A stretch of DNA of 64,000 nt from Nanobdellota archaeon (GCA_042572295.1 JBHPFA010000004.1:1683-65682); one strand, 5' to 3'. Shown: positions 4,517-45,000, numbered from the stretch's first letter. Numbers and translations are program-made. The notes: generated from the letters alone by a model not told the origin.

Positions 4517-4580
4517 CACATTTGGTTAATAATATACTTCCTTACTATGTCGCAATCACTTTTTTTAAAAAAATTCTAAA

Positions 4581-6610: not shown

Positions 6611-6619
6611 TTTTGCTTT

Positions 6620-6985
6620 TTATTTACGACCTATTTTAGTAGGTTTGAGATTATTTTGCTGATTATATTTTTCAATTAATTGAAAATATTTTTCAGAAAG
6701 TCGTGCATTCTTATATAATATATCCACAGTTGGAGAACTAAGTTCTAAAGCATTTGTAACAAGTTCAGCTATGATGGGCCGTAGTCTTTTGGGTGCTTCC
6801 TTTATAACTTTATGATAAATCTCTAATTGAATTATTAACCCTTCTCTTGCATCACTTCCCTCACTTCCCTCCTCATAAAGTCCAAAGTCTGGACGTATAG
6901 GCTCCTTAAATGTTTCTTTAACAATTTTTTCGATATTTATTCCTTTATTTTTACTCATTTTTCCTAATTCTGATTGTTTTTTCAT
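6620..6985 (-). CDS. hypothetical protein
   Basis: 121-aa ORF with 4-bp overlap with the upstream gene. N-terminus resembles that of 6101-6610. Confidence 0.65.
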   Translation of the reverse strand: MKKQSELGKMSKNKGINIEKIVKETFKEPIRPDFGLYEEGSEGSDAREGLIIQLEIYHKVIKEAPKRLRPIIAELVTNALELSSPTVDILYKNARLSEKYFQLIEKYNQQNNLKPTKIGRK

Positions 6986-7542: not shown

Positions 7543-7554
7543 TTTATTTTCTCC

Positions 7555-7755
7555 TTATTTGTAATATCTTTCTTTTGCATTTAATCGAACTAAGTTTTTA
7601 TCCAAAACATAACCCTCTCTCGTTTTCTTGAAAAAGTCATTAGTCTGTTTTTGACGGTAGATCTCTCTACCATAGATGTTTCCCCAATATTCCATTCCTG
7701 ATTCCTTATCAAGGGGGAATTCTTCAACTTTGTTTTCAATTGTTTCGTTTTCCAT
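7555..7755 (-). CDS. hypothetical small protein
   Basis: 66-aa ORF with AAGGAG upstream. First gene of the minus-strand run. Confidence 0.55.
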   Translation of the reverse strand: MENETIENKVEEFPLDKESGMEYWGNIYGREIYRQKQTNDFFKKTREGYVLDKNLVRLNAKERYYK

Positions 7756-7875
7756 TTTGTTTTGCTCCTTACCATTGTGTTAGTATTATAGGGTAGTACT
7801 CCTATATATAACTAGGCCTCCCCCTTGGGGGTTGCAAATAAGAAGGTTTAAATAAGTCAGCGTCGATAAGTTAAT

Positions 7876-8580
7876 ATGAAACTCAAACAATTAGGATTAT
7901 CAGATTCTGAGGAAAAGGCCTACAAAGCCTTAGTTCATCTTGGAAAGTCTTCTGCTAGTGATGTCAGTAGAGAGGGTGGAGTATCTTATGGGAAGATATA
8001 TGAGGTTCTTGCTTCCCTTGAAAGAAAAGGATTAGTTAGAGTTGTTCCCGAGAAAACAAAGAAGTTCACTGCAACAGACCCTACAAATTTGATGAAAATT
8101 GTTGATGATAAAGAAGAACAATTGGGTGTATTGAGAACAGAAGTTAAAAATCTAAAGCAGATGTATGAATCTCGTGAAGAAGAAGTTGTGCAGCTTGTTA
8201 AAGGAGTCAATAATTTTCCAAAAGTAATGCGTAATTTTGCTAAACCCCACAAATATAGCTACAGCATCAAGTATAATTCCCTCTATAAACCAGAAGTGGT
8301 AATGCGAGCAGAAACTGAGGTCTTGAAAGGAATAGATGTTAAATCTTTAGCAAGATATGAAGAAGATACAAAGAGAGATATTAAGAAATGGTTGAAGGTT
8401 GTTCCCAATATCAGAGAAATGAAGAATAAAGGGACTTCTATTTTTATGAATGAATCCGAGGTTGTGTTTACATTAATAAAAAGTAATATTATCGTGTCTA
8501 TTAAGGATAAAACCCTTTGTGATTTGATGAAAAATCTCTTTGATAATACTTATAAGATTTCTGAAAAGATCAAAAAGTAA
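7876..8580 (+). CDS. TrmB-family transcriptional regulator
   Basis: LKQLGLSDSEEKAY...ASDVSREGGVSYGKIYEVLASLERKGLV, the TrmB winged-helix N-terminal domain. Confidence 0.9.
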   Translation: MKLKQLGLSDSEEKAYKALVHLGKSSASDVSREGGVSYGKIYEVLASLERKGLVRVVPEKTKKFTATDPTNLMKIVDDKEEQLGVLRTEVKNLKQMYESREEEVVQLVKGVNNFPKVMRNFAKPHKYSYSIKYNSLYKPEVVMRAETEVLKGIDVKSLARYEEDTKRDIKKWLKVVPNIREMKNKGTSIFMNESEVVFTLIKSNIIVSIKDKTLCDLMKNLFDNTYKISEKIKK

Positions 8581-8610: not shown

Positions 8611-8906
8611 TAAGTAACGGAGCTGACTTTCGGAACTTTACTGTAAAAGGTAATTCCTCGATATGTATGAGGAAATAGTTCTGAGGAAGGTCCGCCCACC
8701 CTTTACGCGACGGTGTAAAGAAGTAACCAGTTTCATAAGAAATGGTGCTGTGAAGTATCGGCTCTGCAACAGAAACGATCCTATTAAGTTAGGCTGAAAC
8801 GGGCAACCTGGTTGGTGCAACTCATTTGATGAGGCTTAGTAGAATGTCAGTACATTCTGCCCTCGCTTGCGAGGAGAATGACAGAAGGCGGCCTATCCGT
8901 TACTTA
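8611..8906 (+). ncRNA. rnpB: RNase P RNA
   Basis: P1 TAAGTAACGGA/TCCGTTACTTA, CR-I GAGGAAGGTCCGCCC, CR-II/III ACAGAAA and TGAAACGG, and CR-V ACAGAAGGCGGCCTA pairing with CR-I to form P4. Confidence 0.9.
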
Positions 8907-13034: not shown

Positions 13035-13312
13035 GATTAGGAAAAATTATAGAATCTGTAAAACCGAAAAGAAGAGTCGGAAAAATTACTAATGATAGTA
13101 GAGGATCTCCTCAAAGTTATATTTTTGAAGAAAATAATGGAACAAATTACCTCGTAGTTTATAGGGGTAAAAGTGGAGAGTGTTCAATGAAGAAAGGGGA
13201 TGAAGTATGGATGAACCTACCAAGTTATTCTGAAAGATCAATTGAATTTAATAAAGAAGATTATGGAGTAATAAAAAAAATAGAAGATACAGATCTATGG
13301 AGCAAAGAATAA
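13025..13312 (+). CDS. hypothetical protein inserted in the ribosomal protein operon
   Basis: 95-aa ORF overlapping rpl39e by 10 nt and ending 1 nt before rpl31e. Confidence 0.6.
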   Translation: MVLGLGKIIESVKPKRRVGKITNDSRGSPQSYIFEENNGTNYLVVYRGKSGECSMKKGDEVWMNLPSYSERSIEFNKEDYGVIKKIEDTDLWSKE

Positions 13313-13313
13313 A

Positions 13314-13880
13314 ATGGCAAACTTAGAAAGACAATACACAATACCTTTGAGAAGAGAAACTTTGAAAGTTCCTAAATATAGAAGAGCTAAAAAAGCTGTT
13401 AAAGCAATTAGAGAATTCTTAGCAAGACACATGAAGACTGATTTTGAAAAAGTTAAATTAGGTAGATGGTTAAATGAATTAGTATGGGAAAGAGGAATAA
13501 AGAACCCTCCAAATAAAGTAAGAGTTAATGTTTCTAAAGATGATAAGGGAATTGCAACAGCTGAATTAATCGAGCTTTCTGAAAGATCTAAAAAAATTGA
13601 CGCTAAAGATCAAGCAAGAATGAAAGTAATTGATGAGAAGAAAAAGAAAGAAGATGATGAGAAGAAAGCACAAGAAGAAGCTCAAAAGAAAGCTGCTGAA
13701 GAAGAGAAGAAAAAGCAAGAAGCTGCTAAAACTGAAGCAGAAAAGGAAGTTGATAAGGAAAAGAAAGATATCGAAAAAGTAGAGAAACAAGTTGTAGATA
13801 CCCCTAAGACTCCAAAAACAGCTGCTCCTAAAGCAAAATCTGCCCCTAAGCACCCAGTAAGAAAGGCTATGCAGAAGTAA
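13314..13880 (+). CDS. rpl31e: ribosomal protein eL31 with charged C-terminal extension
   Basis: ERQYTIPLR...RRAKKAVKAIREFLARHMK...LNELVWERGIKNPP. Confidence 0.95.
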   Translation: MANLERQYTIPLRRETLKVPKYRRAKKAVKAIREFLARHMKTDFEKVKLGRWLNELVWERGIKNPPNKVRVNVSKDDKGIATAELIELSERSKKIDAKDQARMKVIDEKKKKEDDEKKAQEEAQKKAAEEEKKKQEAAKTEAEKEVDKEKKDIEKVEKQVVDTPKTPKTAAPKAKSAPKHPVRKAMQK

Positions 13881-21429: not shown

Positions 21430-21882
21430 ATGAGTAAGAAACATAAGAAAAAATATAAGAAAAGCCATACTCCAAAAGATGTAGAGAAGGCTGTAGGTAA
21501 TTTAAGAAAAAAGCTTAAAAGAATGCCTTATTTTACTGAACTTTCTGGATATGCACCTTGGGCAGCTAAGGCGATAAGTAATGGAGATTATTCTCCTACA
21601 ATTAGATCATGGAGAGATTTTTTGACAGGTGTGTATTCTAAAGAATGGCCTCTCGTCAAGATTAACGATACATTTGATAAAGCAATGGGATCTTCTGAAA
21701 AAGTTCTGACAAGTCAAGAATTCAGAAAATATTGTAAACCTGCTTGGATGGTGTTGGAATATGGAAAATCTGACCTATTCCAGAAATATGGGGGATATGT
21801 GGGTTTTAGAGGCCTAAAATTCCCTGAGAAAAAAGAGAAAAGTATTGGTCTTCTTGGAAAATTATATATGGAATCTGACTAA
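21430..21882 (+). CDS. basic helical-repeat protein ending in the GLLGKLYMESD tag
   Basis: MPYFTEL...AISNGDYSPTIRSWRDFL resembles repeats in 29907-30530. ATG 21430 is preferred over TTG 21412. Confidence 0.7.
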   Translation: MSKKHKKKYKKSHTPKDVEKAVGNLRKKLKRMPYFTELSGYAPWAAKAISNGDYSPTIRSWRDFLTGVYSKEWPLVKINDTFDKAMGSSEKVLTSQEFRKYCKPAWMVLEYGKSDLFQKYGGYVGFRGLKFPEKKEKSIGLLGKLYMESD

Positions 21883-21893
21883 AGTTCGTTTAA

Positions 21894-21910
21894 ACAAAAC
21901 CTTTATAAAT
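21894..21910 (+). promoter_or_regulatory. putative BRE/TATA promoter of the SNF2 operon
   Basis: A-rich stretch followed by TTTATAAA at 21902-21909, 40 nt upstream of ATG 21950. Confidence 0.55.
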
Positions 21911-21949
21911 AAGTTGTTCTTCTATAATAGTAACAGGATTTTCTGTAAA

Positions 21950-24900
21950 ATGGAAGAAAACCCTCAAAATGATTTAATAAGTAAATTTGAAGAAGCCGCA
22001 GCTGATGGTGATGAAAATGCTAAAAAATTGCTTGAAAGAGCAAAAAAAAGAGGCCTCTCTACTGAGGCTTTGTTAGCTATAGCGATGCATGAAGAATTTG
22101 ATAAGATCCGTGCAGGCTCCCAACAAAGAAGGAATTTGGGTGAAAGATTAAAGAAGCTTAGAAAAGGAGCTGCATCACAAGTTCTAGAATTTAAGAGAAA
22201 ATTGAATAGAGAGATTGCTGATTTACACTATAACACAAAAACAGATTGGAAAAAATTAACAGACTGGGCAAAGAAAAAAGAAGAAGATTTGAAGAAAAGA
22301 AAAATAAAAAGAGAAGTCAAAAGTGCGATGGATTCTTGCCTTGAACAAGTTTATCTTAAGAAAGCTAAGCAATTAATAAATGAAAAGGGGATGAAAAAAG
22401 GTGACCTAAAAATCCCTATTGAATTGAAGAGAGTTGGAAAAAATAACGGAAGATATGCTGGAGTCAATGGCTTGAAGAAATTTATTGATGAACACAAAAA
22501 TGATAAAGGTAGGGGTGGAGGAGCAATCCGTGCATTGCTTTTCCTTGGAAATTCTGGAGGAGAAGTTAAAGGAGAGCTTATTGATGAGATAGTCAAAGAA
22601 TATCGCCTTCCAGAATTAGAAAACAATCCTAATTGGAAAAAGGTAAACCGACTTAGTGATTGTTTTGGAAAATTCTCAGTAAAAACAAATGATGATGTTG
22701 TTATAGATGCGGAACTACTTGTTGATTATTTGAAAGTTGATGAAAAAGACTTGCCGAATTCAATGAAGAGAATTCTGGACAGAATGGCAATCAACCACTA
22801 TATGCCAATCCATGATAGTAATCCTGGAAAGACTATCAATGATTTAGAAAGAATAGTCAATGGAGATACTGTAAAACTTTCTAAGAGACTTGCATCTAGA
22901 ACTCTTAGGTACTTAAAACAGCTAGAAAAAGTAGATATTCCAGGATTTGGAACGTTGACTAATCAAAAAGATACTCATGGGTATAGATTAAGAAACTTCC
23001 AATTTGATGGAGCAAAGTTTATTTCTGGAAAGAAAAGAGTTCTTGTTGCCGACGATATGGGTATGTTCAAAACTGCACAAACAATATTCGGAAAAGCATT
23101 AATAGAAAAGAAAATTGGAAAGATACCTTCACTTGTTGTTTGTCCTAACATGACAAAAGATCACTGGGTGAAGGAAATTTACAGATGGTATAGAAACGGA
23201 AGAGTACCGAGGGTTGCAGTTATCAAGGGAGATACTGTAGAGATAAAGTCCTCCCCAGATAGTTCTTGTATAGAAAAAAGAAAACTTGATGATATACTGA
23301 ATGAAAAGGATGCTGAGAGAATAAAGAATGATTATGATGTTGATTTTGTTATTGCAAATTATGAATCTTTTTCAAGAGAAAAAGAAGATGGTTCGCTAGC
23401 GCATAAAAGAGATCTTTATCTTAGCAGATTTAATCTAAAACATATAGTCGCTGATGAGGTCCATAATGCTAATCACCCCCATGCATTAAGAACAAAAGCT
23501 CTAAGGGATATAATTAATTCTTCAGAATACGTTACTATGTTATCTGGAACTCCTGTCCCCAATAGCATTTTAGACTTATATATGATCCTTCATTATTTAG
23601 ATCCAAAGAATTTCAATATTGATTTAGACAGTGATGAAAATATTGGTGAAACTATGAAAAATTTCGCTTTTAATTATGTAAGGGATGAAAAATACAGAAA
23701 TGATGTTAAGAAAATCTTGCACTCCAAGATGATTAGAAGAAAGACTGATAGATTCCTTAAGAGAGACGTTCCAAGGCTTGAAAATGAAGGCAATGAGATT
23801 GTTGAAGTACCCTTGTATGGAGATCATCTAAAAGTTTATGAGGAAATATTCAATAATGAGAAGGTAGATGCTTTGGGGGCATTAAACCAACTTAGAAAAG
23901 CTTCATTAGATCCTTTACTTGTAGATCCAAAATATATACAAGATAGAGAACTTAGAAAGAAAGTCAAAAAGGGACTTATTAAATCATGCAAGTACGAGGA
24001 ACTCCAGAAAAGAGTCAAAGAAGCTGTAGATGCTGGAAAGAAGGTTTTGATTTTCAAGAGTTCAGTATTTACAAAGGGAGTAACTAGTAAATACCCTCAA
24101 AGAGGAATCAAAGACCCTTTAGAAAGAGTTTTAGGGGAAGATTATAGAGAATATAATCCAGTAGTTATTGATAAGGACGTAGATACTGATAGCACTGGTA
24201 AGAAGATTAGTAAGAGAAACTTATTGAGACTTAAATTCCAATTTGGAACTGCTGATAAGATAGTTAAACATTTGGCAGATCAAGGAGATTATTATACTGT
24301 TCCTGCAATTGAAGAGAAGTTAAAGGATTTGAATGTTGATCCAAATGTTGATACTAAAGTAATGCTTGCTACTTTGGGAACTATGAATGAAGGAGTTGAT
24401 GTAACTGGTGCGGATGTTATGATTAACTTAGATCTTCCGGATAGACCTTCTGATGTAGACCAAGGAGATAGAAGATCTAGAAGAGTTGGGGAAATTAAGA
24501 AGAAAAGTGTAAGAATTGATAGATTGATTGCAAAAGTTCCTGATTTAAGATCTATGGATGAAGGAATCTATCAAAGAATTATGCAGAAAAAGGAAAATAT
24601 AGCTGCTATCTTTGACCATGTTCCTGTAACAATTGAAGATTTAGTAAATTCTCAAGAAGATAAAATAAAGACTACTTCCCCTGGAATTGATGAAGCAATG
24701 CCTATTAGATGGAAAACAGCAACTGGATTCTTTAATAAGCACACTGGAAAGGGGCAAGAAAAGTTCCAAGAAGATATAGAACTTAAAGAGATAGGAAAGA
24801 GAATTGCAAGAGCACAAGCTTCTAACTTAGAAACTGGTTATGGTGGAAATACTGCAAGAGTTTATACTAAAGTTATTGAAGGACTTGAAAGTGTTTTAGG

Positions 24901-25654
24901 AAAGAAAGATTGTAAATATGCTGATTTAGCCTCTGGACCGGCTACACTTTCTTATTTCTTAAGAAAACCTGTTGATTGTGTAGACATAAATCCATTCACA
25001 CTTAAGCAAGGTCAGAAATTAGCTGCTCCTGGAAGCAAATTCTATCCAGGATTTTTAATAGACTTGCCTAAAGAAATGGGGAGTAAAAAATATGATTTCG
25101 CAGTTTATTCTTTAGCATTGCACTTGCTTGGAGAAAGAAAACAAACGGATCAAGGGATGGTTAGAGAAAGAGAAAAATCCTTAAGAGAAGTTAATAAAAT
25201 CTTGAAGAAAGATGGTTATTTGATTCTTACTGCGCCAGAAGCAAAAATGAATGCTAAAAATGTACCTGAATTTTATGAAGGTTTGGAAAAATTAGGATTC
25301 AAAGTCATTCCTCAATTAAGTGGATTTGTAAAGGCCAAAGAAAAAGGTAAAAAATTCAAAGTGTACATGATTGTTGCACAAAAATATTCAGAACCTAAAA
25401 AGATTGCCCCTGGTAAACATTATTTTAGAATGTCTGAAAGACCCACAATTAGTGGAAATAATGGGACTAAAATAATTTCTAAAAACCAGCCTAGAAAGAA
25501 AGCTACAGATTCTAAAGGAGGCATAAGAGATAAAGGGAGTGAAGAAATGATGAAAGAAAGAAAGATCTGTCGTGAATTCGAGATCTTAAAAGGAAACAAT
25601 TATGGTAGCCTAGTAGATGCTATCAAAAGTTATGTTCAAGGAGGATACAAATGA
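21950..25654 (+). CDS. SNF2-family helicase/ATPase fused to a C-terminal class I SAM-dependent methyltransferase
   Basis: LRNFQFDG (Q motif), LVADDMGMFKT (Walker A variant), LVVCP, IVADEVH, LSGTPVPN, EGVDVTGADVMINLD, QGDRRSRRVG. C-terminal YADLASGP, VDINP, YDFAVYSLALH and LREVNKILKKDGYL. Confidence 0.88.
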   Translation: MEENPQNDLISKFEEAAADGDENAKKLLERAKKRGLSTEALLAIAMHEEFDKIRAGSQQRRNLGERLKKLRKGAASQVLEFKRKLNREIADLHYNTKTDWKKLTDWAKKKEEDLKKRKIKREVKSAMDSCLEQVYLKKAKQLINEKGMKKGDLKIPIELKRVGKNNGRYAGVNGLKKFIDEHKNDKGRGGGAIRALLFLGNSGGEVKGELIDEIVKEYRLPELENNPNWKKVNRLSDCFGKFSVKTNDDVVIDAELLVDYLKVDEKDLPNSMKRILDRMAINHYMPIHDSNPGKTINDLERIVNGDTVKLSKRLASRTLRYLKQLEKVDIPGFGTLTNQKDTHGYRLRNFQFDGAKFISGKKRVLVADDMGMFKTAQTIFGKALIEKKIGKIPSLVVCPNMTKDHWVKEIYRWYRNGRVPRVAVIKGDTVEIKSSPDSSCIEKRKLDDILNEKDAERIKNDYDVDFVIANYESFSREKEDGSLAHKRDLYLSRFNLKHIVADEVHNANHPHALRTKALRDIINSSEYVTMLSGTPVPNSILDLYMILHYLDPKNFNIDLDSDENIGETMKNFAFNYVRDEKYRNDVKKILHSKMIRRKTDRFLKRDVPRLENEGNEIVEVPLYGDHLKVYEEIFNNEKVDALGALNQLRKASLDPLLVDPKYIQDRELRKKVKKGLIKSCKYEELQKRVKEAVDAGKKVLIFKSSVFTKGVTSKYPQRGIKDPLERVLGEDYREYNPVVIDKDVDTDSTGKKISKRNLLRLKFQFGTADKIVKHLADQGDYYTVPAIEEKLKDLNVDPNVDTKVMLATLGTMNEGVDVTGADVMINLDLPDRPSDVDQGDRRSRRVGEIKKKSVRIDRLIAKVPDLRSMDEGIYQRIMQKKENIAAIFDHVPVTIEDLVNSQEDKIKTTSPGIDEAMPIRWKTATGFFNKHTGKGQEKFQEDIELKEIGKRIARAQASNLETGYGGNTARVYTKVIEGLESVLGKKDCKYADLASGPATLSYFLRKPVDCVDINPFTLKQGQKLAAPGSKFYPGFLIDLPKEMGSKKYDFAVYSLALHLLGERKQTDQGMVREREKSLREVNKILKKDGYLILTAPEAKMNAKNVPEFYEGLEKLGFKVIPQLSGFVKAKEKGKKFKVYMIVAQKYSEPKKIAPGKHYFRMSERPTISGNNGTKIISKNQPRKKATDSKGGIRDKGSEEMMKERKICREFEILKGNNYGSLVDAIKSYVQGGYK

Positions 25655-26208
25655 AATACACAGAATTCTTTGCTAGAGATTCAAAAGTTGTCTCAAAACA
25701 ACTTTTAGGAATGGATCTAGTAAGGACTTTTGGAGGAAGCGAAGATAAGAGAGCGACTATTGCAATGGCTAGTGCTTATAATGGCGAAGCTGGAAGACCT
25801 CAAAAAGGTCTTTTATACGCGCCTGGAGAGCTTTACTTGCCATGGTTTAGTGGATTTAGGAAACTTGCAATTGGATCAGACAAAGAGAATAAACCCTCTG
25901 TCATAACAATTGATGCAATAGTAACTCCTAGCGGAAATGTTCTAACTTCTTCAAAGATCTGTGATTACTTTAGGCTAGGTAAGAATAGCGACAAAGAATT
26001 AGTCGTTAATTACAAGAAAAGTGCACCTAGTATCTATGTAATCGGAGAAAGCGGCAACAGTATTAAGGAAGTTGATGAAAAGAGAGCTTCTAACTGTGTC
26101 GGACAATGGTCTTTGAAAGTGTTAGACGCTCTTAGAGGTATTTCCCCTAAAGGGAAAACCAAAAAGAAAGAGAAATTGAAGCTTCTTCAAAAGTACATGG
26201 AAGCATAA
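25651..26208 (+). CDS. degenerate 3-methyladenine DNA glycosylase (AAG/MPG)-like protein
   Basis: FFARDSKVVSKQLLG.DLVR...ATIAMASAYNG...APGELY matches the MPG N-terminus, but IVETEAY has become IAMASAY. 4-bp overlap with the SNF2 gene. Confidence 0.7.
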   Translation: MKYTEFFARDSKVVSKQLLGMDLVRTFGGSEDKRATIAMASAYNGEAGRPQKGLLYAPGELYLPWFSGFRKLAIGSDKENKPSVITIDAIVTPSGNVLTSSKICDYFRLGKNSDKELVVNYKKSAPSIYVIGESGNSIKEVDEKRASNCVGQWSLKVLDALRGISPKGKTKKKEKLKLLQKYMEA

Positions 26209-26237: not shown

Positions 26238-27827
26238 ATGATAAATTTGGAGAAAAAGATAGTTGGAAATACAAAAAATGTAGGTGTGGCTCTGGGAGAG
26301 GTTCAAGGAGAAGAGATTTTGTGTTATACGAAACCTTCTGATGAGCAATTGAAAAAAGATTATGCTGAGTTTAAGTCTTGTAAAAAAATTGGGGAAAAAT
26401 ATGACTTGAATCCTTCAACTATTGCTAGATGGCTGAAAAAAATTGGAGTTGAAAGAAATCGTGGAATAAATAGGCCTTCTGAGGAACAGTTAAGAAAAGA
26501 TTATACTGAATTAAAGTCTACATATAAGGTTGGAGCAAAATATGGCTTATGCCAAAAGACTATTAGTAAATGGTTAAAAGAGGCAGGAATTGATGTTAAA
26601 AACCATAACATAAGAGAAAGTCCCACCAAGAAACAATTAAAGAAAGATTATAAAAGATTAAAGTCAACTCACAAACTTGGAAAAGAATATGATGTAAGCC
26701 AAAGACTTGCCCTTACTTGGTTAAATGATGCAGGGATTGGGGTTAAGAACTGTAGATATTATGAAAGACCTTCTGGGGAACGGTTAAAGAAAGATTATGT
26801 TAAATTAAAAACTTGTGAGAAGGTGGGGGAGAAATATGGGAGACGTCCTAGTACTGTTAATAGGTGGTTAAAGGATATTGGTGTTGAAGTTAAAGATAAT
26901 AGACAAGGGAAAAGACCTTCTGATGAAAAATTAAAGAAAGATTATGTTAAATTAAAAACCTGTGAAAAAGTGGGGAAGAAATATGACGTTTCTAGTGCTG
27001 CTGTTAATAAATGGTTGAAAGCGGCAGGTGTTGAAGTTAAAAGTCATCGTTATTATGACAGACCTTCTGAAGAACAGTTAAAGAAAGATTATGCTGAATT
27101 GAAGTCTATCATTAAGATGGGGGAGAAATATGGTGTAAGAGAAGGTACTGCAAGTAGGTGGTTGAAAGATGTAGGGGTTGAGGTTAAAAGTCACTTATAT
27201 ATTCGTAAGGCTTCTAATGATGAATTAAAAAAATCTTATGAAGAATTAAAATCTACTCGTAAAGTTGGAGAAAAATATGAAATAAGTCCTTCTGCCGTTC
27301 GTATTCGGTTAAATGAAATGGGTGTAGAAACCAAAAACCACAATCATAGGGAAAGGCCTTCTCCAGAACAATTGAAAAAAGACTATAGAGAATTAAAATC
27401 AATTGTCAAGATGGGGGAGAAATATGGTACTAACCCTACTACTGCTGGGGAATGGTTGAATGATATTGGAGTTAAATTGAACAGAGGAATAGATAAGCCA
27501 TCTGATGAACAATTAATAAGAGATTATGCTGAATTGAAATCTGTTGCAAAAATCAGCAAGAAATACGATGTAAGCACCCATACTGCTTATAGGTGGCTGA
27601 AGAAAGGAGGAGGGGTTGAGATTAAAACTCGCGCTAGAGGAAAAAAACCTTCTTATGAGCAATTAAAGAAAGATTATGAAAGATTAAAAGATACTCACAA
27701 GATTGGAGAAAAATATGATGTTAGTACTTCTACTGCTTATAATTGGTTAAAAGGTATAAAAACTGATGGACTAAGGACTGGGAGAAAAAAAGGACTTCTT
27801 GGAAAATTATACATGGAGGGAGATTGA
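26238..27827 (+). CDS. tandem HTH-repeat protein, 10 modules
   Basis: Ten ~49-aa units of RPS.EQLKKDY.ELKS..K.G.KY.v....a..WL...Gv. Ends in GLLGKLYMEGD. Confidence 0.9.
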   Translation: MINLEKKIVGNTKNVGVALGEVQGEEILCYTKPSDEQLKKDYAEFKSCKKIGEKYDLNPSTIARWLKKIGVERNRGINRPSEEQLRKDYTELKSTYKVGAKYGLCQKTISKWLKEAGIDVKNHNIRESPTKKQLKKDYKRLKSTHKLGKEYDVSQRLALTWLNDAGIGVKNCRYYERPSGERLKKDYVKLKTCEKVGEKYGRRPSTVNRWLKDIGVEVKDNRQGKRPSDEKLKKDYVKLKTCEKVGKKYDVSSAAVNKWLKAAGVEVKSHRYYDRPSEEQLKKDYAELKSIIKMGEKYGVREGTASRWLKDVGVEVKSHLYIRKASNDELKKSYEELKSTRKVGEKYEISPSAVRIRLNEMGVETKNHNHRERPSPEQLKKDYRELKSIVKMGEKYGTNPTTAGEWLNDIGVKLNRGIDKPSDEQLIRDYAELKSVAKISKKYDVSTHTAYRWLKKGGGVEIKTRARGKKPSYEQLKKDYERLKDTHKIGEKYDVSTSTAYNWLKGIKTDGLRTGRKKGLLGKLYMEGD

Positions 27828-27828
27828 A

Positions 27829-28470
27829 ATGCCATATAGAAAAGTTGATAGACCTTCTAAGAAACAATTAAGGCAAGATTACAAGGAATTGAAGTCTTGT
27901 GGAAAGATTGGAAAAAAATATGGAGTGAGTAGAATGGGTGCTCTTAATTGGTTGAGATATGCAGGAGTTGAAGTTAGACAATATAATCAAATAGAAGAAA
28001 TTTCTGGAAGACAATTAAGGAAAGATTATAGGGAATTGAATTCTTGTAAAAAAATTGGGGAGAAATATGGAATTAATGGAGGCACTATATCTAAACGATT
28101 AAAGGAATTAGGAGTTAAGATTAAGGAAAATAGAGTTATAGAAAGGCCTCCTAAAAGACAGCTAAAAAAGGACTATAGAGAATTGGGTTCTTGTGGAAAA
28201 ATGGGGGAAAAATATAAAGTGTCTCTCCACACTGTTAGCAAATGGCTAAATGATATTGGAATCGTTGTAAGAAATGGTTATGAAAGACCTTCTAAGGAAC
28301 AATTAAGAAAAGATTATGCTGAATTGAAATCTACAATAAAACTAGGGGAAAGATATAATGTATGTCAAGCGACTGCCCGTAATTGGTTGGTAGAAGAGGG
28401 TATTAAAATGAGAAAAAGATCTCCACCAAGACAAGGTCTTCTTAAAAGAATATACCTGGGGGAAGATTGA
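27829..28470 (+). CDS. tandem HTH-repeat protein, 4 modules
   Basis: Same repeat unit. ATG lies 1 nt after the upstream stop, with GGAGG upstream. Ends in GLLKRIYLGED. Confidence 0.88.
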   Translation: MPYRKVDRPSKKQLRQDYKELKSCGKIGKKYGVSRMGALNWLRYAGVEVRQYNQIEEISGRQLRKDYRELNSCKKIGEKYGINGGTISKRLKELGVKIKENRVIERPPKRQLKKDYRELGSCGKMGEKYKVSLHTVSKWLNDIGIVVRNGYERPSKEQLRKDYAELKSTIKLGERYNVCQATARNWLVEEGIKMRKRSPPRQGLLKRIYLGED

Positions 28471-28471
28471 G

Positions 28472-29248
28472 ATGACAACACCTTATGAAAGACCTCCGAG
28501 AGAACAATTAAAGAAAGATTATACTGAATTGAAATCTTGCACTAAAATAGCTAAGAAATATGGTATAAGTAAAAGCGCAATAGGAAATTGGATGGCTGAT
28601 GCAAAAATTAAACTAAAGGAAGCTCCAAGATATAATAGGCCTTCTGATGAAAAATTAAAAAGTCTTTATGAAGAACATGGCTCAAGTAAGAAAGTCGGAG
28701 AAGTATTGGGAGTTCCTCAAGTAAGAGCCTGGAAATGGTTGAAGAAAGCAAAGATATACATGCCAACAAGTCTTGAAAGGCCTTCTGATGAAAAGTTAAG
28801 GGAACTTTATGAAGAACATAAATCTGCAACAAAGATCGCAGGAGTTTTAGATGTGAGCCCAAAGACAGCATGCAACTGGCTAGAAGATATAGGAGTTAAT
28901 CTAAAATTTATACGTTATAAAAACAAACCATCAGTTGAAGAATTAAAGAGACTCTATAAAAAACATAATTCAGGTAATAAAATAGCTGCAGAATTAGGAG
29001 TAGGATCCCAAGCAGTAAGAAAATGGCTAGAGAAACACAAAATCCAAAAAACAAGGGTCAAAAGGCCCCCTTACAAACAGTTAAAGAGAGATTATATTAA
29101 ATTGAAGACTCCTAAGAAAATTGGAGAAAAATATAGTGTTAGGCCTTCTACTATTTATGCTTGGTTTAGAGAGTTAGATATTGGAACAAAAAGAAAATCT
29201 CCTACAAAATCTGGCCTTCTTGGAAAATTATACATGGAGGGAGATTGA
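28472..29248 (+). CDS. tandem HTH-repeat protein, 5 modules
   Basis: Same repeat unit; modules 2-4 are a subtype (LYEEH.S..KIA.vLgV). Ends in GLLGKLYMEGD. Confidence 0.88.
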   Translation: MTTPYERPPREQLKKDYTELKSCTKIAKKYGISKSAIGNWMADAKIKLKEAPRYNRPSDEKLKSLYEEHGSSKKVGEVLGVPQVRAWKWLKKAKIYMPTSLERPSDEKLRELYEEHKSATKIAGVLDVSPKTACNWLEDIGVNLKFIRYKNKPSVEELKRLYKKHNSGNKIAAELGVGSQAVRKWLEKHKIQKTRVKRPPYKQLKRDYIKLKTPKKIGEKYSVRPSTIYAWFRELDIGTKRKSPTKSGLLGKLYMEGD

Positions 29249-29249
29249 G

Positions 29250-29903
29250 ATGGGAGTACCTTGGAATAAAAAAGATAGACCTTCTGATGAACAGTTAAGG
29301 AAGGATTATACTAAATTTAGATCTATTACAAAGATGGGTAAGAAATATGAAGTAGCTCAATGTACTGTTTATAAATGGTTGAAAGAAGCAAAAATTGAAA
29401 CTCCTATGAGTTACAAAAGACCTTCTGATGAACAATTAAAAGAAGATTATAGGAAATTGAAATCTAGTACCAGAATCGGGAGGAAATATGGTGTTAGTGG
29501 AGGTGCTGTTCTAAAATGGTTGAAAAAATCTAAGATTGAAGCTAAAAGCCGTCTTTACAAAGAAAGACCTTCTGATGAACAATTGAGGAAAGATTATACT
29601 AAGTTGAAGACTACTAAAAAAGTTGGAAATAAATATGAGATTCACCAAGGAACTGCCCATAGGTGGTTGAAAAAAGCAGGAATCGAAACTAAAAACCAGA
29701 ATTATAAAGACAGACCTTCTGATGAGCAGCTGAAGAAAGACTATGCTGAGTTGAAATCCACTCGTAAAATCGGAAGAAAGTATAGAATTAGTCAAAGAGC
29801 TGCACTTGATTGGTTATTGGCTGGGGGAATTGATATTAAAGACTCTAACAATAAATTAAAACTTCAAGGCCTCCTTGGAAAATTATACATGGAGGGAGAC
29901 TGA
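29250..29903 (+). CDS. tandem HTH-repeat protein, 4 modules
   Basis: Four RPSDEQL units. ATG lies 1 nt after the upstream stop. Ends in GLLGKLYMEGD. Confidence 0.88.
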   Translation: MGVPWNKKDRPSDEQLRKDYTKFRSITKMGKKYEVAQCTVYKWLKEAKIETPMSYKRPSDEQLKEDYRKLKSSTRIGRKYGVSGGAVLKWLKKSKIEAKSRLYKERPSDEQLRKDYTKLKTTKKVGNKYEIHQGTAHRWLKKAGIETKNQNYKDRPSDEQLKKDYAELKSTRKIGRKYRISQRAALDWLLAGGIDIKDSNNKLKLQGLLGKLYMEGD

Positions 29904-29906
29904 AAT

Positions 29907-30530
29907 ATGGAAAAAATAACTTTGAAATATATACATGAAACTTTCAATGAAGGAAAGGATAGAAGGGGCTATGCTCTTTCTCCGCTTAAATTCATTGAAA
30001 GACATCCAGAGATAGCTACAGCAATATATAATGGAAAGGTTCCTGAACTTAGAAATGTAGCTCATCTTTACAGAATAAGAGGTCTAGACCCAACTAAAGG
30101 AGACGTTTTATCTAAAGAAGAGATTAGAAGAAGAGTATATCCTCATGTTAAAAAGATAATTGCGCCAACTAGAGAAAAAATGGTAGAGATAGATCCTGCT
30201 GTGATTTTTTCAATCATACATGGAGGTTATGATCCAAAAAAGAGGACTTGGATAGGATTTTTGAAAGCAGAAGGATTTATACAAAATAATAAAAATGTTG
30301 GAAGGAAAATACAAATAACTGAAGAAATGATAGATAATGCCTATGATGGTTGTATGGATAAAAATGGGGAGAGTTATATGCCAAGCATATTAGAGATGAA
30401 AAAAGAATTAAAGAAAGACTATTCTGGCGCATTAGAAAGAATGGGAATGACACATACTGGATTTATAGCTTTAAGGAGAATGGGTGGAAGATTAGGCAAG
30501 GCGCCTAGTGGATTAGAGAAGAAACTATAA
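29907..30530 (+). CDS. helical-repeat hypothetical protein
   Basis: About three loosely repeated units (e.g. PTREKM...SIIHGGYDPKKRTWIGFL), similar to 21430-21882. Confidence 0.7.
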   Translation: MEKITLKYIHETFNEGKDRRGYALSPLKFIERHPEIATAIYNGKVPELRNVAHLYRIRGLDPTKGDVLSKEEIRRRVYPHVKKIIAPTREKMVEIDPAVIFSIIHGGYDPKKRTWIGFLKAEGFIQNNKNVGRKIQITEEMIDNAYDGCMDKNGESYMPSILEMKKELKKDYSGALERMGMTHTGFIALRRMGGRLGKAPSGLEKKL

Positions 30531-30629: not shown

Positions 30630-31283
30630 ATGGAAAAGATACTTGAGCTTGTTGAAAGAAAAAAACCCTTTGAATATGGTGGAATTTTAGAACAGAATTT
30701 TTTTAAAAGAGATTGTAAAACTATAGCAAGGGATTTGTTAGGTAAAGAAATATCAAGGGGATATTCAGGAGGGGGTGCAGGAATGGTTGTTTTCATTAAT
30801 TATGGGATTATAATTAAAGCTAGCGCTTATGAGGGAAATGGCCCTCAAGAAGGATTATCTTTTGCTCCAGGAAGAATTTGTATTAATGATTCAGAGTTGA
30901 GTATGGGCACTGAAAGGAAAAGAAAATCTTCTATAGTTACTATTGATGCACTAGCTATTCCTTCTTTTGCTATAGTTGGTAGCAGAAAAATAGAAGTCCG
31001 AGAAAAACCTAAGATAATCTTTTCTGAAAATATGCAAGATTTTCATGAACAATTTGATACTTATAAGGGGATTGAGAATAATGAACCAGTCTATGACACT
31101 ACAGCACATGAAAGACACAGTGAGCTTGGAGAATATTGTTATGATGCACTAAGGGAAGGGTTTCGTATTACTAGCTATAAAGAAGATATTACTAATTTAT
31201 TTGGTGGGATAAAGGAAATAGGAAAAAATAAAGCCCCTAATTGTATTGGAACTTATACTCTTGACTCTTTAGTCTCTTCTTAA
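30630..31283 (+). CDS. second degenerate AAG/MPG-like protein
   Basis: FFKRDCKTIARDLLGK...GIIIKASAYEG..PQEGLSFAPG...TIDA...APNCIG. Paralog of 25651-26208. Confidence 0.7.
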   Translation: MEKILELVERKKPFEYGGILEQNFFKRDCKTIARDLLGKEISRGYSGGGAGMVVFINYGIIIKASAYEGNGPQEGLSFAPGRICINDSELSMGTERKRKSSIVTIDALAIPSFAIVGSRKIEVREKPKIIFSENMQDFHEQFDTYKGIENNEPVYDTTAHERHSELGEYCYDALREGFRITSYKEDITNLFGGIKEIGKNKAPNCIGTYTLDSLVSS

Positions 31284-31323
31284 GACCATCAAAATTTAAA
31301 TAATGCTGTTTTCTAGTTAATTG

Positions 31324-31719
31324 ATGTCAAAGAAAAGAGGAAGTGCTGCTGAAAGGGAATTATTGCATATGTTCTGTGATCATGGGTTCTCAGCGATAAG
31401 AGTTGCTGGAAGTGGAAGCATGGCAGAACCAAGCTGTGATCTGCTTGTGGGGAATGGATCCTTGATGGCTGCTATAGAATGTAAATTGACTAGGCAAAAA
31501 AAGAAATATATCACTAAAGAACAAATGAATGAATTTGTTGATTTTAGTAAGAATTTTGGATTAACTGGACTGATTGCGGTTAAGTTTGTAAGAAAAGGTT
31601 GGTGGTTTATTTCTCCAGAGAGGATGGATGATACTGGAAAGAATTTCGCTATTTCTTTAGAAGATATAAAAGAAAGAGGAATGCACTTTAATGATTTAAT
31701 GATTAAACATAAAAAATGA
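31324..31719 (+). CDS. hjc: Holliday junction resolvase Hjc
   Basis: KRG...ERELL...GFSAIRVAGSG...DLL...AIECK (PD-(D/E)xK). Confidence 0.92.
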   Translation: MSKKRGSAAERELLHMFCDHGFSAIRVAGSGSMAEPSCDLLVGNGSLMAAIECKLTRQKKKYITKEQMNEFVDFSKNFGLTGLIAVKFVRKGWWFISPERMDDTGKNFAISLEDIKERGMHFNDLMIKHKK

Positions 31720-32894
31720 AAACTAAACTTGTCTTTTTGGCCATGGCCATTTTATTTTTGAGTTCTGCTGCTTCTGCCATTATAATAAATGAGATTAAAG
31801 CAAATGATGTTGAATGGATTGAGGTTTATAATGAAGGTAGTGTTTTATTGAATCTAGAATCATGGACAATTGAAGATTCTGGAGGAGATAATCCTGACAC
31901 TTTGAGCTGTGAGGGGATTTCTGAGTGTAATTTAACCACAAGTTCTGAATATTTTTTGATTTTAGGTAAGGCCAACACTATTTCTGAGATTACTTCCAAT
32001 AATGTGACTTATTTTTATACAGACGATCAAAAAATTGGTAATGGATTAAATGATGATGGAGATAATCTTACAATAAAAGATAATGGAACAATAATTTATT
32101 CTAAAACTTACAGTACTTTAAGCAATTCTTCATTAAGTTTTCAATATAATGGAACGGGTTGGTGTGAAGGGGATTTAACACCTGGACAAGCAAGCTCTTG
32201 TATTGTTGTACAAGAAGAAAATCAGACTCAAGAGAACCAAACTCAAGATAATCAGACAGATCCTGTGGTTTGTGATGATAATGTATGGGATATTTTAGAT
32301 TATCCCGATTTGATTGAATTCGGAGATACAGATAGAATTAAAGTAAGTTTTAATCCAACTTGTTATGATTGGGATGCTGTAAAGTTTTTGGTTTATGGAA
32401 GTTCCCAAAGAATCATTTCTTATGAAAATGGCACAAAAATAGAGAAATATTTTGAATGTCAAGAAGGAATCGAATTTGATGATTTAGGTAATGAGACTCA
32501 GACATTTGATATCCCTTTTTATGCTTATCCTAATTGTGATGATAAATATAGTAGTGATAAGTTTGGTGTTTCTTTGAGGGTTTGTAGACCTTCCTGGACT
32601 AAATATGATGAAAGAAAATTGAATATCTCCTTTGCATTAAGAGAAGAAGAATGTAATGGGAAAGACGTTAATGTTACTGCAGATGTTACTGCAGATGTTA
32701 CTGCTGATGTTAATGTGACTCAAGATTCCGATACTGAATCCGATCAGACTATAGGAGATAATGACTCTTCTGAGAAGAAAGAAGTAGTCTATCAATCAAA
32801 TAAAGGGCCCAGTTTGAGATTTGCGATCTATTTACTGGCAATTTTGATGATTTTATTGGTTATTTATATGGTTATAAATAACAATAACCTTTAA
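31716..32894 (+). CDS. lamin-tail-domain surface protein with C-terminal TM anchor
   Basis: Signal peptide, IIINEI...EWIEVYN...L..WTIED...LNDDGD...TPG, and a C-terminal hydrophobic helix. Confidence 0.82.
   Translation: MKTKLVFLAMAILFLSSAASAIIINEIKANDVEWIEVYNEGSVLLNLESWTIEDSGGDNPDTLSCEGISECNLTTSSEYFLILGKANTISEITSNNVTYFYTDDQKIGNGLNDDGDNLTIKDNGTIIYSKTYSTLSNSSLSFQYNGTGWCEGDLTPGQASSCIVVQEENQTQENQTQDNQTDPVVCDDNVWDILDYPDLIEFGDTDRIKVSFNPTCYDWDAVKFLVYGSSQRIISYENGTKIEKYFECQEGIEFDDLGNETQTFDIPFYAYPNCDDKYSSDKFGVSLRVCRPSWTKYDERKLNISFALREEECNGKDVNVTADVTADVTADVNVTQDSDTESDQTIGDNDSSEKKEVVYQSNKGPSLRFAIYLLAILMILLVIYMVINNNNL
32671..32712 (+). repeat. 12-bp coding tandem repeat (ATGTTACTGCAG x ~3.5; VTAD)
   Basis: Directly visible in the sequence, in the linker of the LTD protein. 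Confidence 0.85.
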
Positions 32895-42024: not shown

Positions 42025-45000
42025 ATGAGAAAAATAGATTACAGAATTGAAAGAATATTCGCAGTATTTACAATATACTTAATGTTTTCTTTAACTATTG
42101 CTTCTGCATATGCAATTGCAATTCCTGAAGAAGAAATAATGAGTAAACAAAGTCCTTTAGCTTCATTATCACTATTCTTTATCGAAGTACTAGATTCAAT
42201 GCTTCCGGGAGTTGCTGCTGATGATGATTTCTGTTGTGAAAGAACAACAACTGGAAGTTATTGTATTGAGATGGACCGTGATGCTTCAGAGGATTGTGAT
42301 GTTCCACTAACACCTGGAAGATGTTCTGCAGATATAGATGGTTGTTTTATTGGAACTTGTATACAACAGAACGGAGATTGTGACGCTTATATGCCTCAAC
42401 AAAAATGTGAAGACAGCTTCGGAGTTTGGGATTCTAGACCTTTATTAGAAATTGATGCTTGTACGCCTACTTGTTGTATATATACTGATGATGAAAAAAT
42501 TGTAGATACAGAACATGTAGCTTTTAGAAATAAATGTGAAAGATTACCTCAATTCGAAGAAGAGGAATTAAACTTAGAAGAAAGAAATGTTAATCCTGTA
42601 ACTTGTAGAAGTTTAGTTGATGTTGAAACAAATGGTTATTGTACTTTCATAGATAAAGCAGTTTGTGAATTTACAACTTTTGGTGAATGTAATGAAGATG
42701 GAGGAAACTGGGAAGGAAATAAAAGATGTGCTTCTTGTGTTCCAAACTTTGAAATAAGATGTCCTTCTGAAAAAGATCCTATTGAACAAGGATTTGGTGC
42801 TTATTATTTTGATTCTTGTGGTGGTCCTGGAGATATTTATGATGCTTGTGACATCGAGGAAGTTTGTGAAGCTGACGAAGGAGAAATAGCCCATTGTGAA
42901 GATAAAACTTGTCCGCTAGATATTAGATTTACAAACTTAGGTTATGATACAGAATATTTCAAGGCAAATGAAGTTGAAATTGAGGGGATGTTTGAAGGCA
43001 ATTATATTAATACAAAAGTCCTAGCAGGTACTGAAGAAGCAATTAATGGTTATAACTTACAACATGGAGAACAAGCTTGTGTAAGATTCCAAGGTCCAGG
43101 AGAGCAACATTATATGATTTCTTGTATCTTTGGAGAGATGCAAGTTTTTGGTGTACATGATTCAAGAGAAAATATTTGTACATTTAATGGAGAAAACGCT
43201 AATGGTGCAGATAATAGATATGAGACTTGTCAATTAAGTGGACAAAATAAGGGAGTTCATGAATATGGGGCAGGTTCTTTCGGAAAATTACTTTCCAAAA
43301 CTTTTAGTTTTTTGGGAGGAGATTTACTTACACCAAAATTCTGGGATAAATGGGCTTTTTTTGCTGGTCCTCTAGGTCTTTCTACTGAACAAAGATGTAA
43401 AGCTGAAGGTGTTCCTCAAGAAAATAGAAATGCTGTAATTGGTGGAGATGAACCTGAACAATATGGTGGGACTCATTGTATTGCGACAAAAGAGAATAAT
43501 GACTGTGTTCCAAAATATGCCCCTGCAACAAATGATTATTGTAACACTTGTTCAACTAATGAAGCAAGTAATCCTTGGAATAAATGTGGAGAAGAAACTC
43601 AATGTACTTCTTTAGGATATTGTACCCAGCAAGAGAATAGGGCAAATGTTCTTGCAAGTGCAACAATTTGTTTAGCTGAGACGACTGCACAAACTGCAAT
43701 ACTTACTGGAATCAGAGCAATAGCCGATAATGATAAAACAAGAAAGTATTTCGAAGATGCAAGAACAAAACTTCGTGGTGATGAAGAAAGTGCCGAGGCA
43801 GCTAAAAAAGAATTGTCAGATACTTGGGCAGATAAAGCCTATAGGGCCATTGCTGGAGATACAAATAAAGATGATGGTAAAATTGCAAAAAGCATCCCTG
43901 ATTTCTTCAGAAAACTCGTTACTGCTCCTGGAACTCTTGTTGGAGGAGAAATTGATAATGGCAAGGCCACAACTGCTGCAAATGAGCTCGGATTGTTTGG
44001 AACATTAGTTGATAGAGCAATTACATTTACTGAAATATTTTTCTTAGGTCCTCCTAGTATAAAGGCAAGCCAGAAAGCTGCTGAGAAAAAGCTTGAAGAA
44101 GGAAAAAAGACTCTAGATCAACTTTTGAAAGATGCTGATGCAAAAATGAAAAAGCTTGGTGCGGATGCGAAAGTAGTGCACAGTGGAGAAGGAGCTGTAG
44201 AGATTAGCGCTGGGGAAAGAGGATATACTGTAACTACAAATGGAATTTTTGTTGGAGGAGCAGGTCATTTTGAAGATGGAGCGATTCCCCCACAATATAA
44301 AGGAGCTTTTGAAGCAGGTCAAGCTTATTTAGCTGCTCAAAGAATTTTAACAACAGAAGCACAAAGAAAAGCATTGTTTGGTTACTTCGCAAGACAAAGT
44401 GCTCAAACTGCAGCAGATGGAGAACAGCAAAAACTTCAGAATAGAGCGACAGAAATGAATAAGGCCGGACAAGGATTTGAAGCACCTCCTACTACACAAA
44501 GACCACAACAACCTGCAGAACAAATAGATATAGATAAAATAGGAAGTGCAGAAGCTGCTATAAAAGGGTTTGAGGGAAAAATAGGAGAACTAAGGACGCA
44601 AATTCAACAGCAAGAAGCAGCACAACAAAGTCTTCCTGCAAATCAAAGAATTGATTTAAGTCTTACTACTGAACAAATTAATGATATAGATAATGGTGTA
44701 CAAGACTTGATTGAAAATATTGAAAAGCTTAAACAAGATGTTGCACCAAGTACTGTTCAACAACCTCCTCAAAACATAGACCAATACTTAACACAAACTA
44801 ATGAAATAGATGAGGGATTGAAACACTTGATTGAAAATACCGAAGAGCTAACACAAAATTTGGAGGATGCAGCAAGTGCGGCGGAAAGTCCACCTGAAGC
44901 AAAAGTTAAATTAGAGCCAGTAACACAAACTGCAGCAAATCTTGAAGAAAGTCTTAAAGCTTTACAAGGTGCTGGAGGGGTTTTAGGAGAAGCTGGAGCA

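Follow-up and report, generated by a model that had tools for sequence, protein, structure and literature searches.

Several described systems provide a context for the four proteins analysed here, which consist of tandem helix-turn-helix (HTH) modules and are encoded at positions 26238-29903 of a 64,000-nucleotide (nt) stretch from a Nanobdellota archaeon (GCA_042572295.1, JBHPFA010000004.1:1683-65682; the whole stretch is referred to as the window). HTH proteins contact the major groove at the start of helix 3, and nuclease-associated modular DNA-binding domains (NUMODs) occur in homing endonucleases. The repeats of transcription activator-like effectors (TALEs) are near-identical two-helix units of 33-35 amino acids (aa), which differ at a two-residue repeat-variable diresidue (RVD). 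Fusions of SNF2 ATPases with methyltransferases are known as well, for example fungal DNMT5. Cbp1 has three and Cbp2 two HTH repeats, which are joined by basic linkers and bind a 25-bp repeat (PMC3597662).

The proteins of the window resemble Cbp1 and Cbp2 in their tandem homeodomain-like HTH repeats and basic linkers, and the whole string might likewise read one long site, which is about 25 bp for the 2-3 repeats of Cbp1/Cbp2. There is a weak sequence match over three modules, and the Cbp2 structure 2lvs is among the best fold rows. However, Cbp1 and Cbp2 have 2-3 repeats, whereas the window proteins have 4-10 and their relatives as many as 17, and Cbp1 and Cbp2 have neither a conserved tail nor an operon with SNF2 and AAG-like genes. 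NUMODs and the homing-endonuclease repeats of PF18780 are similar in that short modules in variable number aim a catalytic domain; relatives of the present modules are fused to LAGLIDADG and HNH domains, and one repeat type can stand in for another in the same architecture (G277 versus G284, see below). Unlike these systems, the window proteins are devoid of a nuclease and have an SNF2-methyltransferase and an AAG-like protein as partners; the complete Pfam lists of g2 and g4 (E<=1) do not include NUMOD1. The paired domain, the DNA-binding domains of Tc1/mariner transposases, Myb R1R2R3 and the DUX4 double homeodomain are similar to the arrays in their tri-helical fold, in their flexible linkers and in additive recognition. 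With a structural model of g4 as query, the top Foldseek rows are weak and consist entirely of tandem-HTH DNA binders (Mos1/SETMAR/Tc3, DUX4, Myb-repeat proteins and Cbp2), but no match in PDB reached E<=1e-3, and proteins of this group comprise 2-4 domains and lack an operon context.

The reading favoured here, with slightly better than even confidence, is that the arrays serve as sequence-specific DNA-targeting adaptor subunits of an SNF2-methyltransferase/AAG-like system, a proposal that builds on gene order, a shared C-terminal tail and a domain that has moved between the array proteins and the SNF2 protein. The four genes, g1 to g4, have the same direction and encode 10, 4, 5 and 4 modules, respectively, each 47-50 aa long. 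The first gene, g1 (26238-27827, plus strand, 529 aa), encodes a 31-aa leader, modules 1-5 (26331-26471, 26472-26618, 26619-26765, 26766-26912, 26913-27059), modules 6-10 (27060-27206, 27207-27353, 27354-27494, 27495-27644, 27645-27791) and the tail GLLGKLYMEGD. It is followed on the same strand by g2 (27829-28470, 213 aa; modules at 27850-27996, 27997-28143, 28144-28284 and 28285-28431), which has the tail GLLKRIYLGED, by g3 (28472-29248, 258 aa; modules at 28490-28636, 28637-28777, 28778-28924, 28925-29062 and 29063-29209) and by g4 (29250-29903, 217 aa; modules at 29277-29417, 29418-29564, 29565-29711 and 29712-29858), the latter two again with GLLGKLYMEGD. Modules 2-4 of g3 are the most divergent, and LY replaces DY at their positions 10-11.

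Upstream lies the SNF2-methyltransferase fusion gene (21845-25654, plus strand; likely start ATG at 21950), whose product joins an SNF2 ATPase to a class-I SAM-methyltransferase-like domain, has an N-terminal extension of about 365 aa and ends in the tail-like motif SLVDAIKSYVQGGYK. The protein matches Pfam SNF2-rel_dom at 1.6e-26, and Helicase_C, Methyltransf_31 and Methyltransf_11 weakly, under the cut-offs; it aligns with the orthologue of genome G034 over 1056 aa (E 2e-20), and its C-terminal part is 35% identical to the protein of genome G277. As in ZorD, DrmD, DpdE and DNMT5-like fusions, an SNF2 part is present, and the ATPase is coupled to a methyltransferase-like domain. However, the matches to the ZorD, DpdE and DrmD profiles (1e-21 to 1e-9) cover the generic SNF2 core only, and the methyltransferase-like domain resembles Methyltransf_11/31 and not DNA methyltransferase families. 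PADLOC returned generic SNF2 matches and no defence-system assignment, and no other Zorya, DISARM or Dpd gene was found nearby. A second SNF2-family gene of the host assembly (C1:66678-67388, in a 627-aa frame) is situated away from the arrays.

The stop codon of the SNF2-methyltransferase gene overlaps the ATG of AAG/MPG-like protein 1 (25651-26208, plus strand, 185 aa), which ends in the tail-like LLQKYMEA, and AAG/MPG-like protein 2 (30630-31283, plus strand, 217 aa, with an internal insertion of about 60 aa) is encoded downstream of the arrays; the two are 34% identical (alignment A10). Alone, proteins 1 and 2 match the family weakly (Pfam PF02245 at 0.1 and 0.04, NCBIfam 3-methyladenine glycosylase at 8.5e-4 and 3.8e-3), but their orthologues at other loci pass the Pfam cut-off with 41-57 bits, and a joint profile of seven AAG-like proteins matches human AAG (1f4r, 1bnk) at 1.1e-10. 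In human AAG Glu125 is the general base (PMC12347255); the offset of this numbering relative to the alignment was inferred. The column of the Glu in human ETEAY is occupied by Ser in both window proteins, by Ala in G034 and G116 and by Gly in G277 and G284, and Glu is found only in G320; the Tyr two residues further on is kept as Tyr or Trp. Thus, the array-linked copies (window 25651-26208 and 30630-31283; L041 2478-3014; L039 6729-7250; L047 7389-7844; L056 9714-10196) are probably a diverged, catalytically altered subfamily of the glycosylase fold and not ordinary glycosylases. Genome G116 contains a canonical MPG gene (201 bits) beside the diverged array-linked copy (50.5 bits; C9:2844-3353 versus C6:26788-27165), which suggests that the latter is a specialised paralogue.

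The association of arrays with these partners recurs. Arrays were found near an SNF2-methyltransferase gene, an MPG-like gene or both in eight other loci with differing gene orders, five of them in genomes (G034, G277, G284, G391, G116) and three on metagenome contigs (L063, L060, L065). In at least six of these loci, as in the window, the arrays are free of nuclease domains and share an operon with the partners. Both partners adjoin arrays in the window, G034, G277, G284 and L063. The order is MPG-like gene, SNF2-methyltransferase (1183 aa) and four repeat proteins, all ending in SLLE(Q/S)Y(V/I), in G034, and MPG-like gene, 5-module HTH array with a C-terminal domain and SNF2-methyltransferase (783 aa), with overlapping stops and starts, in G277. 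G284 has the same three genes as G277, and its array is of another repeat type with the same C-terminal domain. In G391, arrays and an array with the C-terminal domain precede an SNF2 gene, and in G116 the MPG-like gene adjoins two arrays. L063 has the order array, SNF2-methyltransferase (1142 aa), four repeat proteins of three module types and MPG-like gene, with all five repeat proteins ending in IKQ(A/V)LDGMLN(D/E)YIQG..K, whereas an array is followed by an SNF2 gene in L060 and two tail-bearing arrays by an MPG-like gene in L065. At least two further repeat-module types are present in the same operons and share the tails, one resembling homing-endonuclease-associated repeats and one of a '...YDKLTR...' type; genes of further repeat types are located at 6597-7946 and 9578-10588 in L041, at 13078-13836 and 14201-16374 in L063 and probably at 29907-30530 in the window. 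A 449-aa protein of G034 matches PF18780 weakly, under the cut-off (6e-5).

The tail of all four window arrays consists of a hydrophobic pair, 2-3 residues, Tyr and then Gly or an acidic residue, and the Tyr is invariant in the 13 aligned proteins. Tails of one locus hardly differ from each other (five in L063; three identical and one diverged here), whereas those of separate loci do, a pattern that fits co-evolution with a partner encoded at the locus and also fits recent duplication. In some other genomes the arrays carry a C-terminal domain instead, which was confidently modelled as one all-alpha unit (pLDDT 84.8, pTM 0.79), and for which Foldseek returned no PDB match at E<=1e-3. Alignment of the two profiles with hhalign (C-terminal domain, A12; SNF2 N-terminal extension, A14) related residues 68-161 of the domain to residues 230-326 of the extension with 93.5% probability (E 2.3e-7); the segment homologous to the second half of the domain lies at 22637-22927 (plus strand). 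The N-terminal extension of L060 matches the C-terminal domain of G277 in BLASTP at 1e-10 and the extension of the window protein at 2e-19. The distribution of the domain is complementary in all seven loci in which both genes could be read: tail-only arrays occur with a long SNF2 protein (window genome G000, G034, L063, L060), and C-domain arrays with a short one (G277, G284, G391). Alternate fusion of a domain to either of two partners is classical evidence that the partners, here the arrays and the SNF2 protein, work together. The fusion/fission pattern also hints, though indirectly, that the tail may dock physically on the SNF2 extension.

It should be noted that a number of observations weigh against this interpretation. 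In three of the seven other array-positive genomes (G094, G314, G394; single-module matches) no SNF2 or MPG gene adjoins the match; in G116 (100% complete) arrays occur with an MPG-like gene, yet no SNF2 gene was found at E<=1e-5; and the distant SNF2-methyltransferase loci of G320 and G275 have other neighbours and no arrays. The methyltransferase matches of the SNF2 fusion are under the Pfam cut-offs. The hhalign match is limited to the second half of the C-terminal domain, the first profile comparison (2 rows versus 4 rows) gave a probability of 2.5%, and direct BLASTP of the window and G034 extensions against the G277 array gave nothing; thus, the link of the C-terminal domain depends on an intermediate sequence and on richer profiles. 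By eye, the tail resembles helix 31-40 of the C-terminal domain itself (DIE.VI..LY.G). Moreover, the SNF2-methyltransferase and AAG/MPG-like protein 1 of this genome also end in tail-like motifs, and with tail-like ends on three kinds of protein, a common hub outside the operon fits as well as docking on the SNF2 protein.

In this reading, each tri-helical HTH domain most likely places its helix 3 in the major groove. The short basic linkers starting with R-P-S would follow the backbone or the minor groove, and every module would owe a short sequence preference of its own to the exposed variable positions (27-29, 32, 33 and 36-38). The 25-bp site for 2-3 repeats of Cbp1/Cbp2 leads to an estimate of about 10 bp per module, and by this analogy, and that with paired domains, a protein with 4-10 modules might read a long composite site. 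The proteins g1-g4 would be alternative targeting subunits of an accessory system composed of an SNF2 ATPase-methyltransferase and an AAG-like protein that has no general-base Glu. The shared tail would tie each array to the system, a task of the full all-alpha C-terminal domain in other genomes, and the docking site would most likely be the SNF2 protein, with the other half of the domain located in its N-terminal extension. The system might defend the cell against foreign DNA or act on chromatin or epigenetic state at particular loci; the purpose favoured is that specific DNA sequences are marked or defended against. A broader and more tentative proposal is that small-genome archaea use protein-guided targeting, in which the SNF2 ATPase-methyltransferase and an altered, base-flipping AAG-like protein would form a single effector pair that is aimed at many DNA sequences by a cassette-like set of interchangeable repeat-array 'guides' (HTH, homing-endonuclease-associated and a third type). 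The guides would plug in via the shared tail or domain and diversify at the residues that read DNA, and the system would serve for defence against foreign DNA or for site-specific marking or remodelling. If the adaptor model is true, it would represent a new prokaryotic way to aim one enzyme complex at many sequences via protein guides, and the arrays would be natural material for learning how tandem HTH modules combine specificities. A testable function would be available for accessory genes of poorly understood ultra-small archaea.

The modules themselves are well defined. A first-pass annotation of the window, made from the sequence alone, had described 23 tandem tri-helical HTH units with a conserved scaffold and a differing segment before the WL motif, and all of this was borne out. 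The repeats are not a product of chance, as shown by the periods of 147 and 141 nt found by TRF, by the Pfam matches and by the confinement of matches in the organism's own genome to this locus. All 18 variable heptads that had been quoted are present. In the consensus RPS.EQLKKDY.ELKS..K.G.KY.V...T...WL...G, positions L7 and Y11 are invariant, and P2, K19, W34 and L35 are conserved in at least 90% of the modules; the mean column identity is about 54%. Pfam HTH_23 matches g1 with 90.7 bits (3.5e-26), g3 with 59.5 bits (2.3e-16) and g2 with 25.1 bits (cut-off 24.6); g4 is under this cut-off with 23.0 bits, but it matches HTH_28 with 30.1 bits versus a cut-off of 25. The modules therefore belong, by profile, to the homeodomain-like or transposase-type HTH domains (HTH_23, HTH_28). 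In the AlphaFold2 (AF2) model of g4 (pLDDT 75.7; modules 80-91), helices were predicted at residues 13-23, 26-32 and 37-46, and likewise in all four modules, which corresponds to module positions 4-14, 17-23 and 28-37. In this model each module is a three-helix bundle, with the HTH motif formed by helices 2 and 3. The variable heptad (positions 27-33) comprises the residue preceding helix 3 and its first six residues, as the earlier placement of the variable segment in a DNA-contacting helix had implied, and from the HTH family it can be inferred that the modules bind DNA via helix 3.

The proposal of a hypervariable recognition helix was upheld in one part only. Variation is patterned and not uniform: column entropy is 0-1.2 bits at the core positions L7, Y11, K19, G21, Y24, W34 and L35, and 2.4-3.15 bits at positions 27-29, 32 and 33. 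However, it is also 2.5-3.2 bits at positions 4, 12, 17 and 18, and 3.0-3.5 bits at the linker positions 45-48. Thus, variation tracks surface exposure, and helix 3 shares its high variability with other parts of the module. The further suggestions of a free-standing, potentially programmable platform with a TALE- or zinc-finger-like code, in which each module reads a fixed short word, have to be weighed against the adaptor model. Like TALEs and C2H2 zinc fingers, the arrays are composed of tandem modules, vary at residues expected to contact DNA and differ in length (3-17 modules in the best 150 relatives). The variable positions lie on the predicted helix 3, unrelated helix-3 segments occur on near-identical scaffolds, and some heptads form loose classes (.PST..., S..(A/G)AL., ST.TAY.). 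Nevertheless, all 23 heptads are different, so that there is no small reusable alphabet comparable to TALE RVDs, and the linkers and positions 4, 12, 17 and 18 are as variable as helix 3. The modules are much less identical to each other than the near-identical TALE repeats, and a 49-aa HTH unit differs from a 34-aa two-helix repeat. A rigid superhelix is not predicted either: the low-confidence linkers and a pTM of 0.32 indicate that the modules are arranged like beads on a string. C2H2 fingers have a zinc-binding fold, whereas no conserved Cys/His pattern was present in the module alignment. The genes are, in addition, embedded in a conserved operon with effector-like proteins, and their modules are akin to the DNA-binding modules of homing endonucleases. 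Taken together, a stand-alone platform of this kind is unlikely.

The codons preserve a record of how the arrays grew, which agrees with the earlier proposal of duplication and diversification. Modules 4 and 5 of g1, which had been singled out for their nearly identical scaffold and different variable segments, differ within codons 1-24 synonymously at three codons and non-synonymously at three, whereas seven of the nine codons 25-33 differ (14 of 27 nt), all non-synonymously, and most linker codons differ as well. A comparison of five modules taken from g1 and g4 shows nt 1-33 to be almost invariant, third positions included (AGACCTTCT for RPS), whereas nt 73-99 contain almost no conserved column. 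Scaffold codons are thus nearly identical even at synonymous sites, while the helix-3 and linker codons are saturated and the divergence is concentrated there. This mosaic fits homogenisation of the scaffold by recombination with distinct reading heads being kept, and it fits cassette-like replacement of those segments.

The gene junctions share a recurrent arrangement. The ATG of g2 is located 1 nt past the stop codon of g1, and a GGAGG motif precedes it within the tail codons of g1. This junction cassette (27810-27831, plus strand), composed of the tail codons TACATGGAGGGAGATTGA with the GGAGG, 1 nt and ATG, reads ...TAC ATG GAG GGA GAT TGA, one base, ATG; it is repeated at 29231-29252 and 29886-29909, with a diverged copy at 28453-28474. 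In a pattern search the 18-nt junction had three matches versus 0.08 expected, and none of 100 shuffles reached three. The open reading frames (ORFs) of g2 and g4 were listed from TTG codons at 27799 and 29181, respectively, both inside the upstream genes, and the likely starts are the ATGs at 27829 and 29250. The location of the GGAGG motif within the last codons of the upstream gene indicates that the array genes are translationally coupled.

Strings of 4-17 HTH domains form a large family, of which no description, nor one of the operon, was found in the literature searched at the level of listings and abstracts. An exhaustive profile search yielded 5559 cluster representatives at E<=1e-3; at the stricter thresholds of <=1e-10 and <=1e-30 there were 952 and 57, respectively. 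Word-indexed searches had found little (g4 at near lengths 0 of 1156 candidates; the module profile at longer lengths 6), and the result of the exhaustive search shows that this scarcity was a limit of sensitivity and not rarity. Of 90 scanned representatives, 88 matched HTH_23, and the top 25 Pfam families among the matches listed were all HTH families. The closest named proteins match weakly, namely Cbp1 (27 bits) and the TyrR HTH domain 1g2h (4.9e-5). Of the best 150 representatives, 43 were read: 14 have a canonical tail (for example ...SLEEAVHEYLGEIK, ...LEKAVQDYIGK and ...ELLKSYVGDKKYAS) and four more a variant, and two carry the all-alpha C-terminal domain of about 190 aa. The present locus places this family in a defined context of separate, duplicated and fast-diverging DNA-reading subunits, tied by gene order and a migrating domain to an SNF2-methyltransferase and to a protein of the glycosylase fold that lacks the catalytic base. 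Its distribution is patchy. With g4 as query, 10 matches were found in the organism's own genome, all within the array locus; arrays were found in none of the three same-family genomes, including a same-genus genome at 92% completeness, and a module match at E<=1e-6 was found in seven other genomes of a 400-genome phylum sample. The SNF2-methyltransferase was found in 2 of 60 relatives and in 6 of the 400 genomes, and thus both are accessory. Viruses yielded no match at 1e-5 among GenBank phages and one weak locus (26% identity) in IMG/VR, and a search of genome contigs with alignment A5 gave 53 pattern matches, of which none was confirmed.

That the arrays are ordinary multi-HTH transcription or nucleoid proteins of the Cbp1/Cbp2, Myb or paired type, and that their gene neighbourhood is without functional meaning, is considered quite unlikely. 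The Cbp1 profile (NCBIfam NF040595) does match residues 13-142 with 27.1 bits (3.1e-6), Cbp2 and tandem-HTH regulators are among the best fold rows, and Cbp1 binds its 25-bp repeat with three HTH repeats (PMC3597662). The three array-positive genomes without linkage to an SNF2 or MPG gene would also be accounted for. However, the Cbp1 score falls far short of its cut-off (140 bits), and neither Cas1 in the 77%-complete genome nor CRISPR-like repeats in the window were found. The linkage recurs in eight other loci with differing gene orders, one and the same domain is attached to the arrays in some genomes and to the SNF2 protein in others, and translation of the genes is coupled.

A relationship to homing endonucleases is evident at the level of the modules. 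LAGLIDADG domains are fused to the modules of relatives in L014 (2e-8) and L017 (4.8e-12), and also in P0007 and P0009; two of the 43 representatives end in an HNH domain, which was confirmed for P0033 (6.8e-10), and two have a nuclease-like core recognised by eye only. For the putative PD-(D/E)xK core of P0018 no Pfam match was obtained, and the C-terminus of P0008 matched only DUF5889, under the cut-off; in both cases the nuclease label was given by eye. These fusions suggest that the module is a DNA-targeting unit in common with homing endonucleases. The arrays of the window could accordingly be selfish remnants of homing endonucleases, or trans-acting specificity subunits, whose nuclease was lost or is encoded elsewhere, and both the patchy distribution and the 207-aa protein encoded next to g4 (29907-30530, plus strand), as a lead only, would be in agreement. 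This protein is coupled to g4 and has no tail; it probably comprises three repeats of a second DNA-binding module type, similar to homing-endonuclease-associated repeats, for which Atlas feature matches (0.83-0.85) and structure rows (TM 0.37-0.45) toward PF18780 HNH_repeat clusters provide leads, and it has no Pfam or NCBIfam match. But scans of g1-g4 and of the neighbouring proteins with Pfam, NCBIfam and PADLOC found no nuclease domain, and instead of a nuclease the arrays have an ATPase-methyltransferase and an AAG-like protein as conserved partners. The frames are intact, the tails conserved and the starts coupled, and this explanation is improbable. Two further ORFs were noted. In G033 (L016, 1288-3273) three HTH modules and a LAGLIDADG-like domain are encoded by an ORF that continues in frame and without a stop into a methionyl-tRNA synthetase gene (open frame 1026 aa); either a homing endonuclease gene has settled immediately in front of the synthetase gene, or the two are fused. 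In G116 (L039, 391-2145, minus strand) a 584-aa protein contains the motif DFRVGNWIIEVEG, similar to the nuclease-like core of the array proteins P0018, P0020 and P0005, and it received no annotation from the searches run.

Least probable of all is that the tail is a degenerate PCNA-interacting peptide (PIP) that tethers the arrays, the SNF2-methyltransferase and MPG-like protein 1 each to the sliding clamp: archaeal repair enzymes commonly carry a PIP box at their C-terminus, the tail is extreme C-terminal, fits x-x-x-hydrophobic-x-x-(Y/L)-(V/I/M/Y) and is carried by three kinds of protein in this genome, but Fen1 of the same genome ends in the canonical QKSLKKFF, the tails have neither Gln nor the aromatic pair, and the same motif lies within a folded domain in other genomes.

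The host assembly (G000) comprises 856 kb and is 77% complete, and the window has a G+C content of about 34%; genome size and composition suggest a DPANN-like organism. An archaeal 16S-tRNA-Ala-23S operon is situated at the start of the window (1-4532), and an archaeal RNase P RNA (8613-8904) adjoins tRNA-Phe. Downstream of the array locus, an Hjc resolvase is encoded at 31321-31719, followed at 31716-32894 by a probable surface protein of 392 aa, which is hydrophobic at its N-terminus and in a C-terminal stretch and contains a short NVTADVTADVTADV repeat. One ORF (1934 aa) spans positions 42025 to 47829 and contains direct repeats spaced by 120 nt at 44673-44859. On the metagenome contig L065, a GyrB-like ORF (2635-4473) is seemingly interrupted after a conserved motif by unrelated sequence, possibly an intein.

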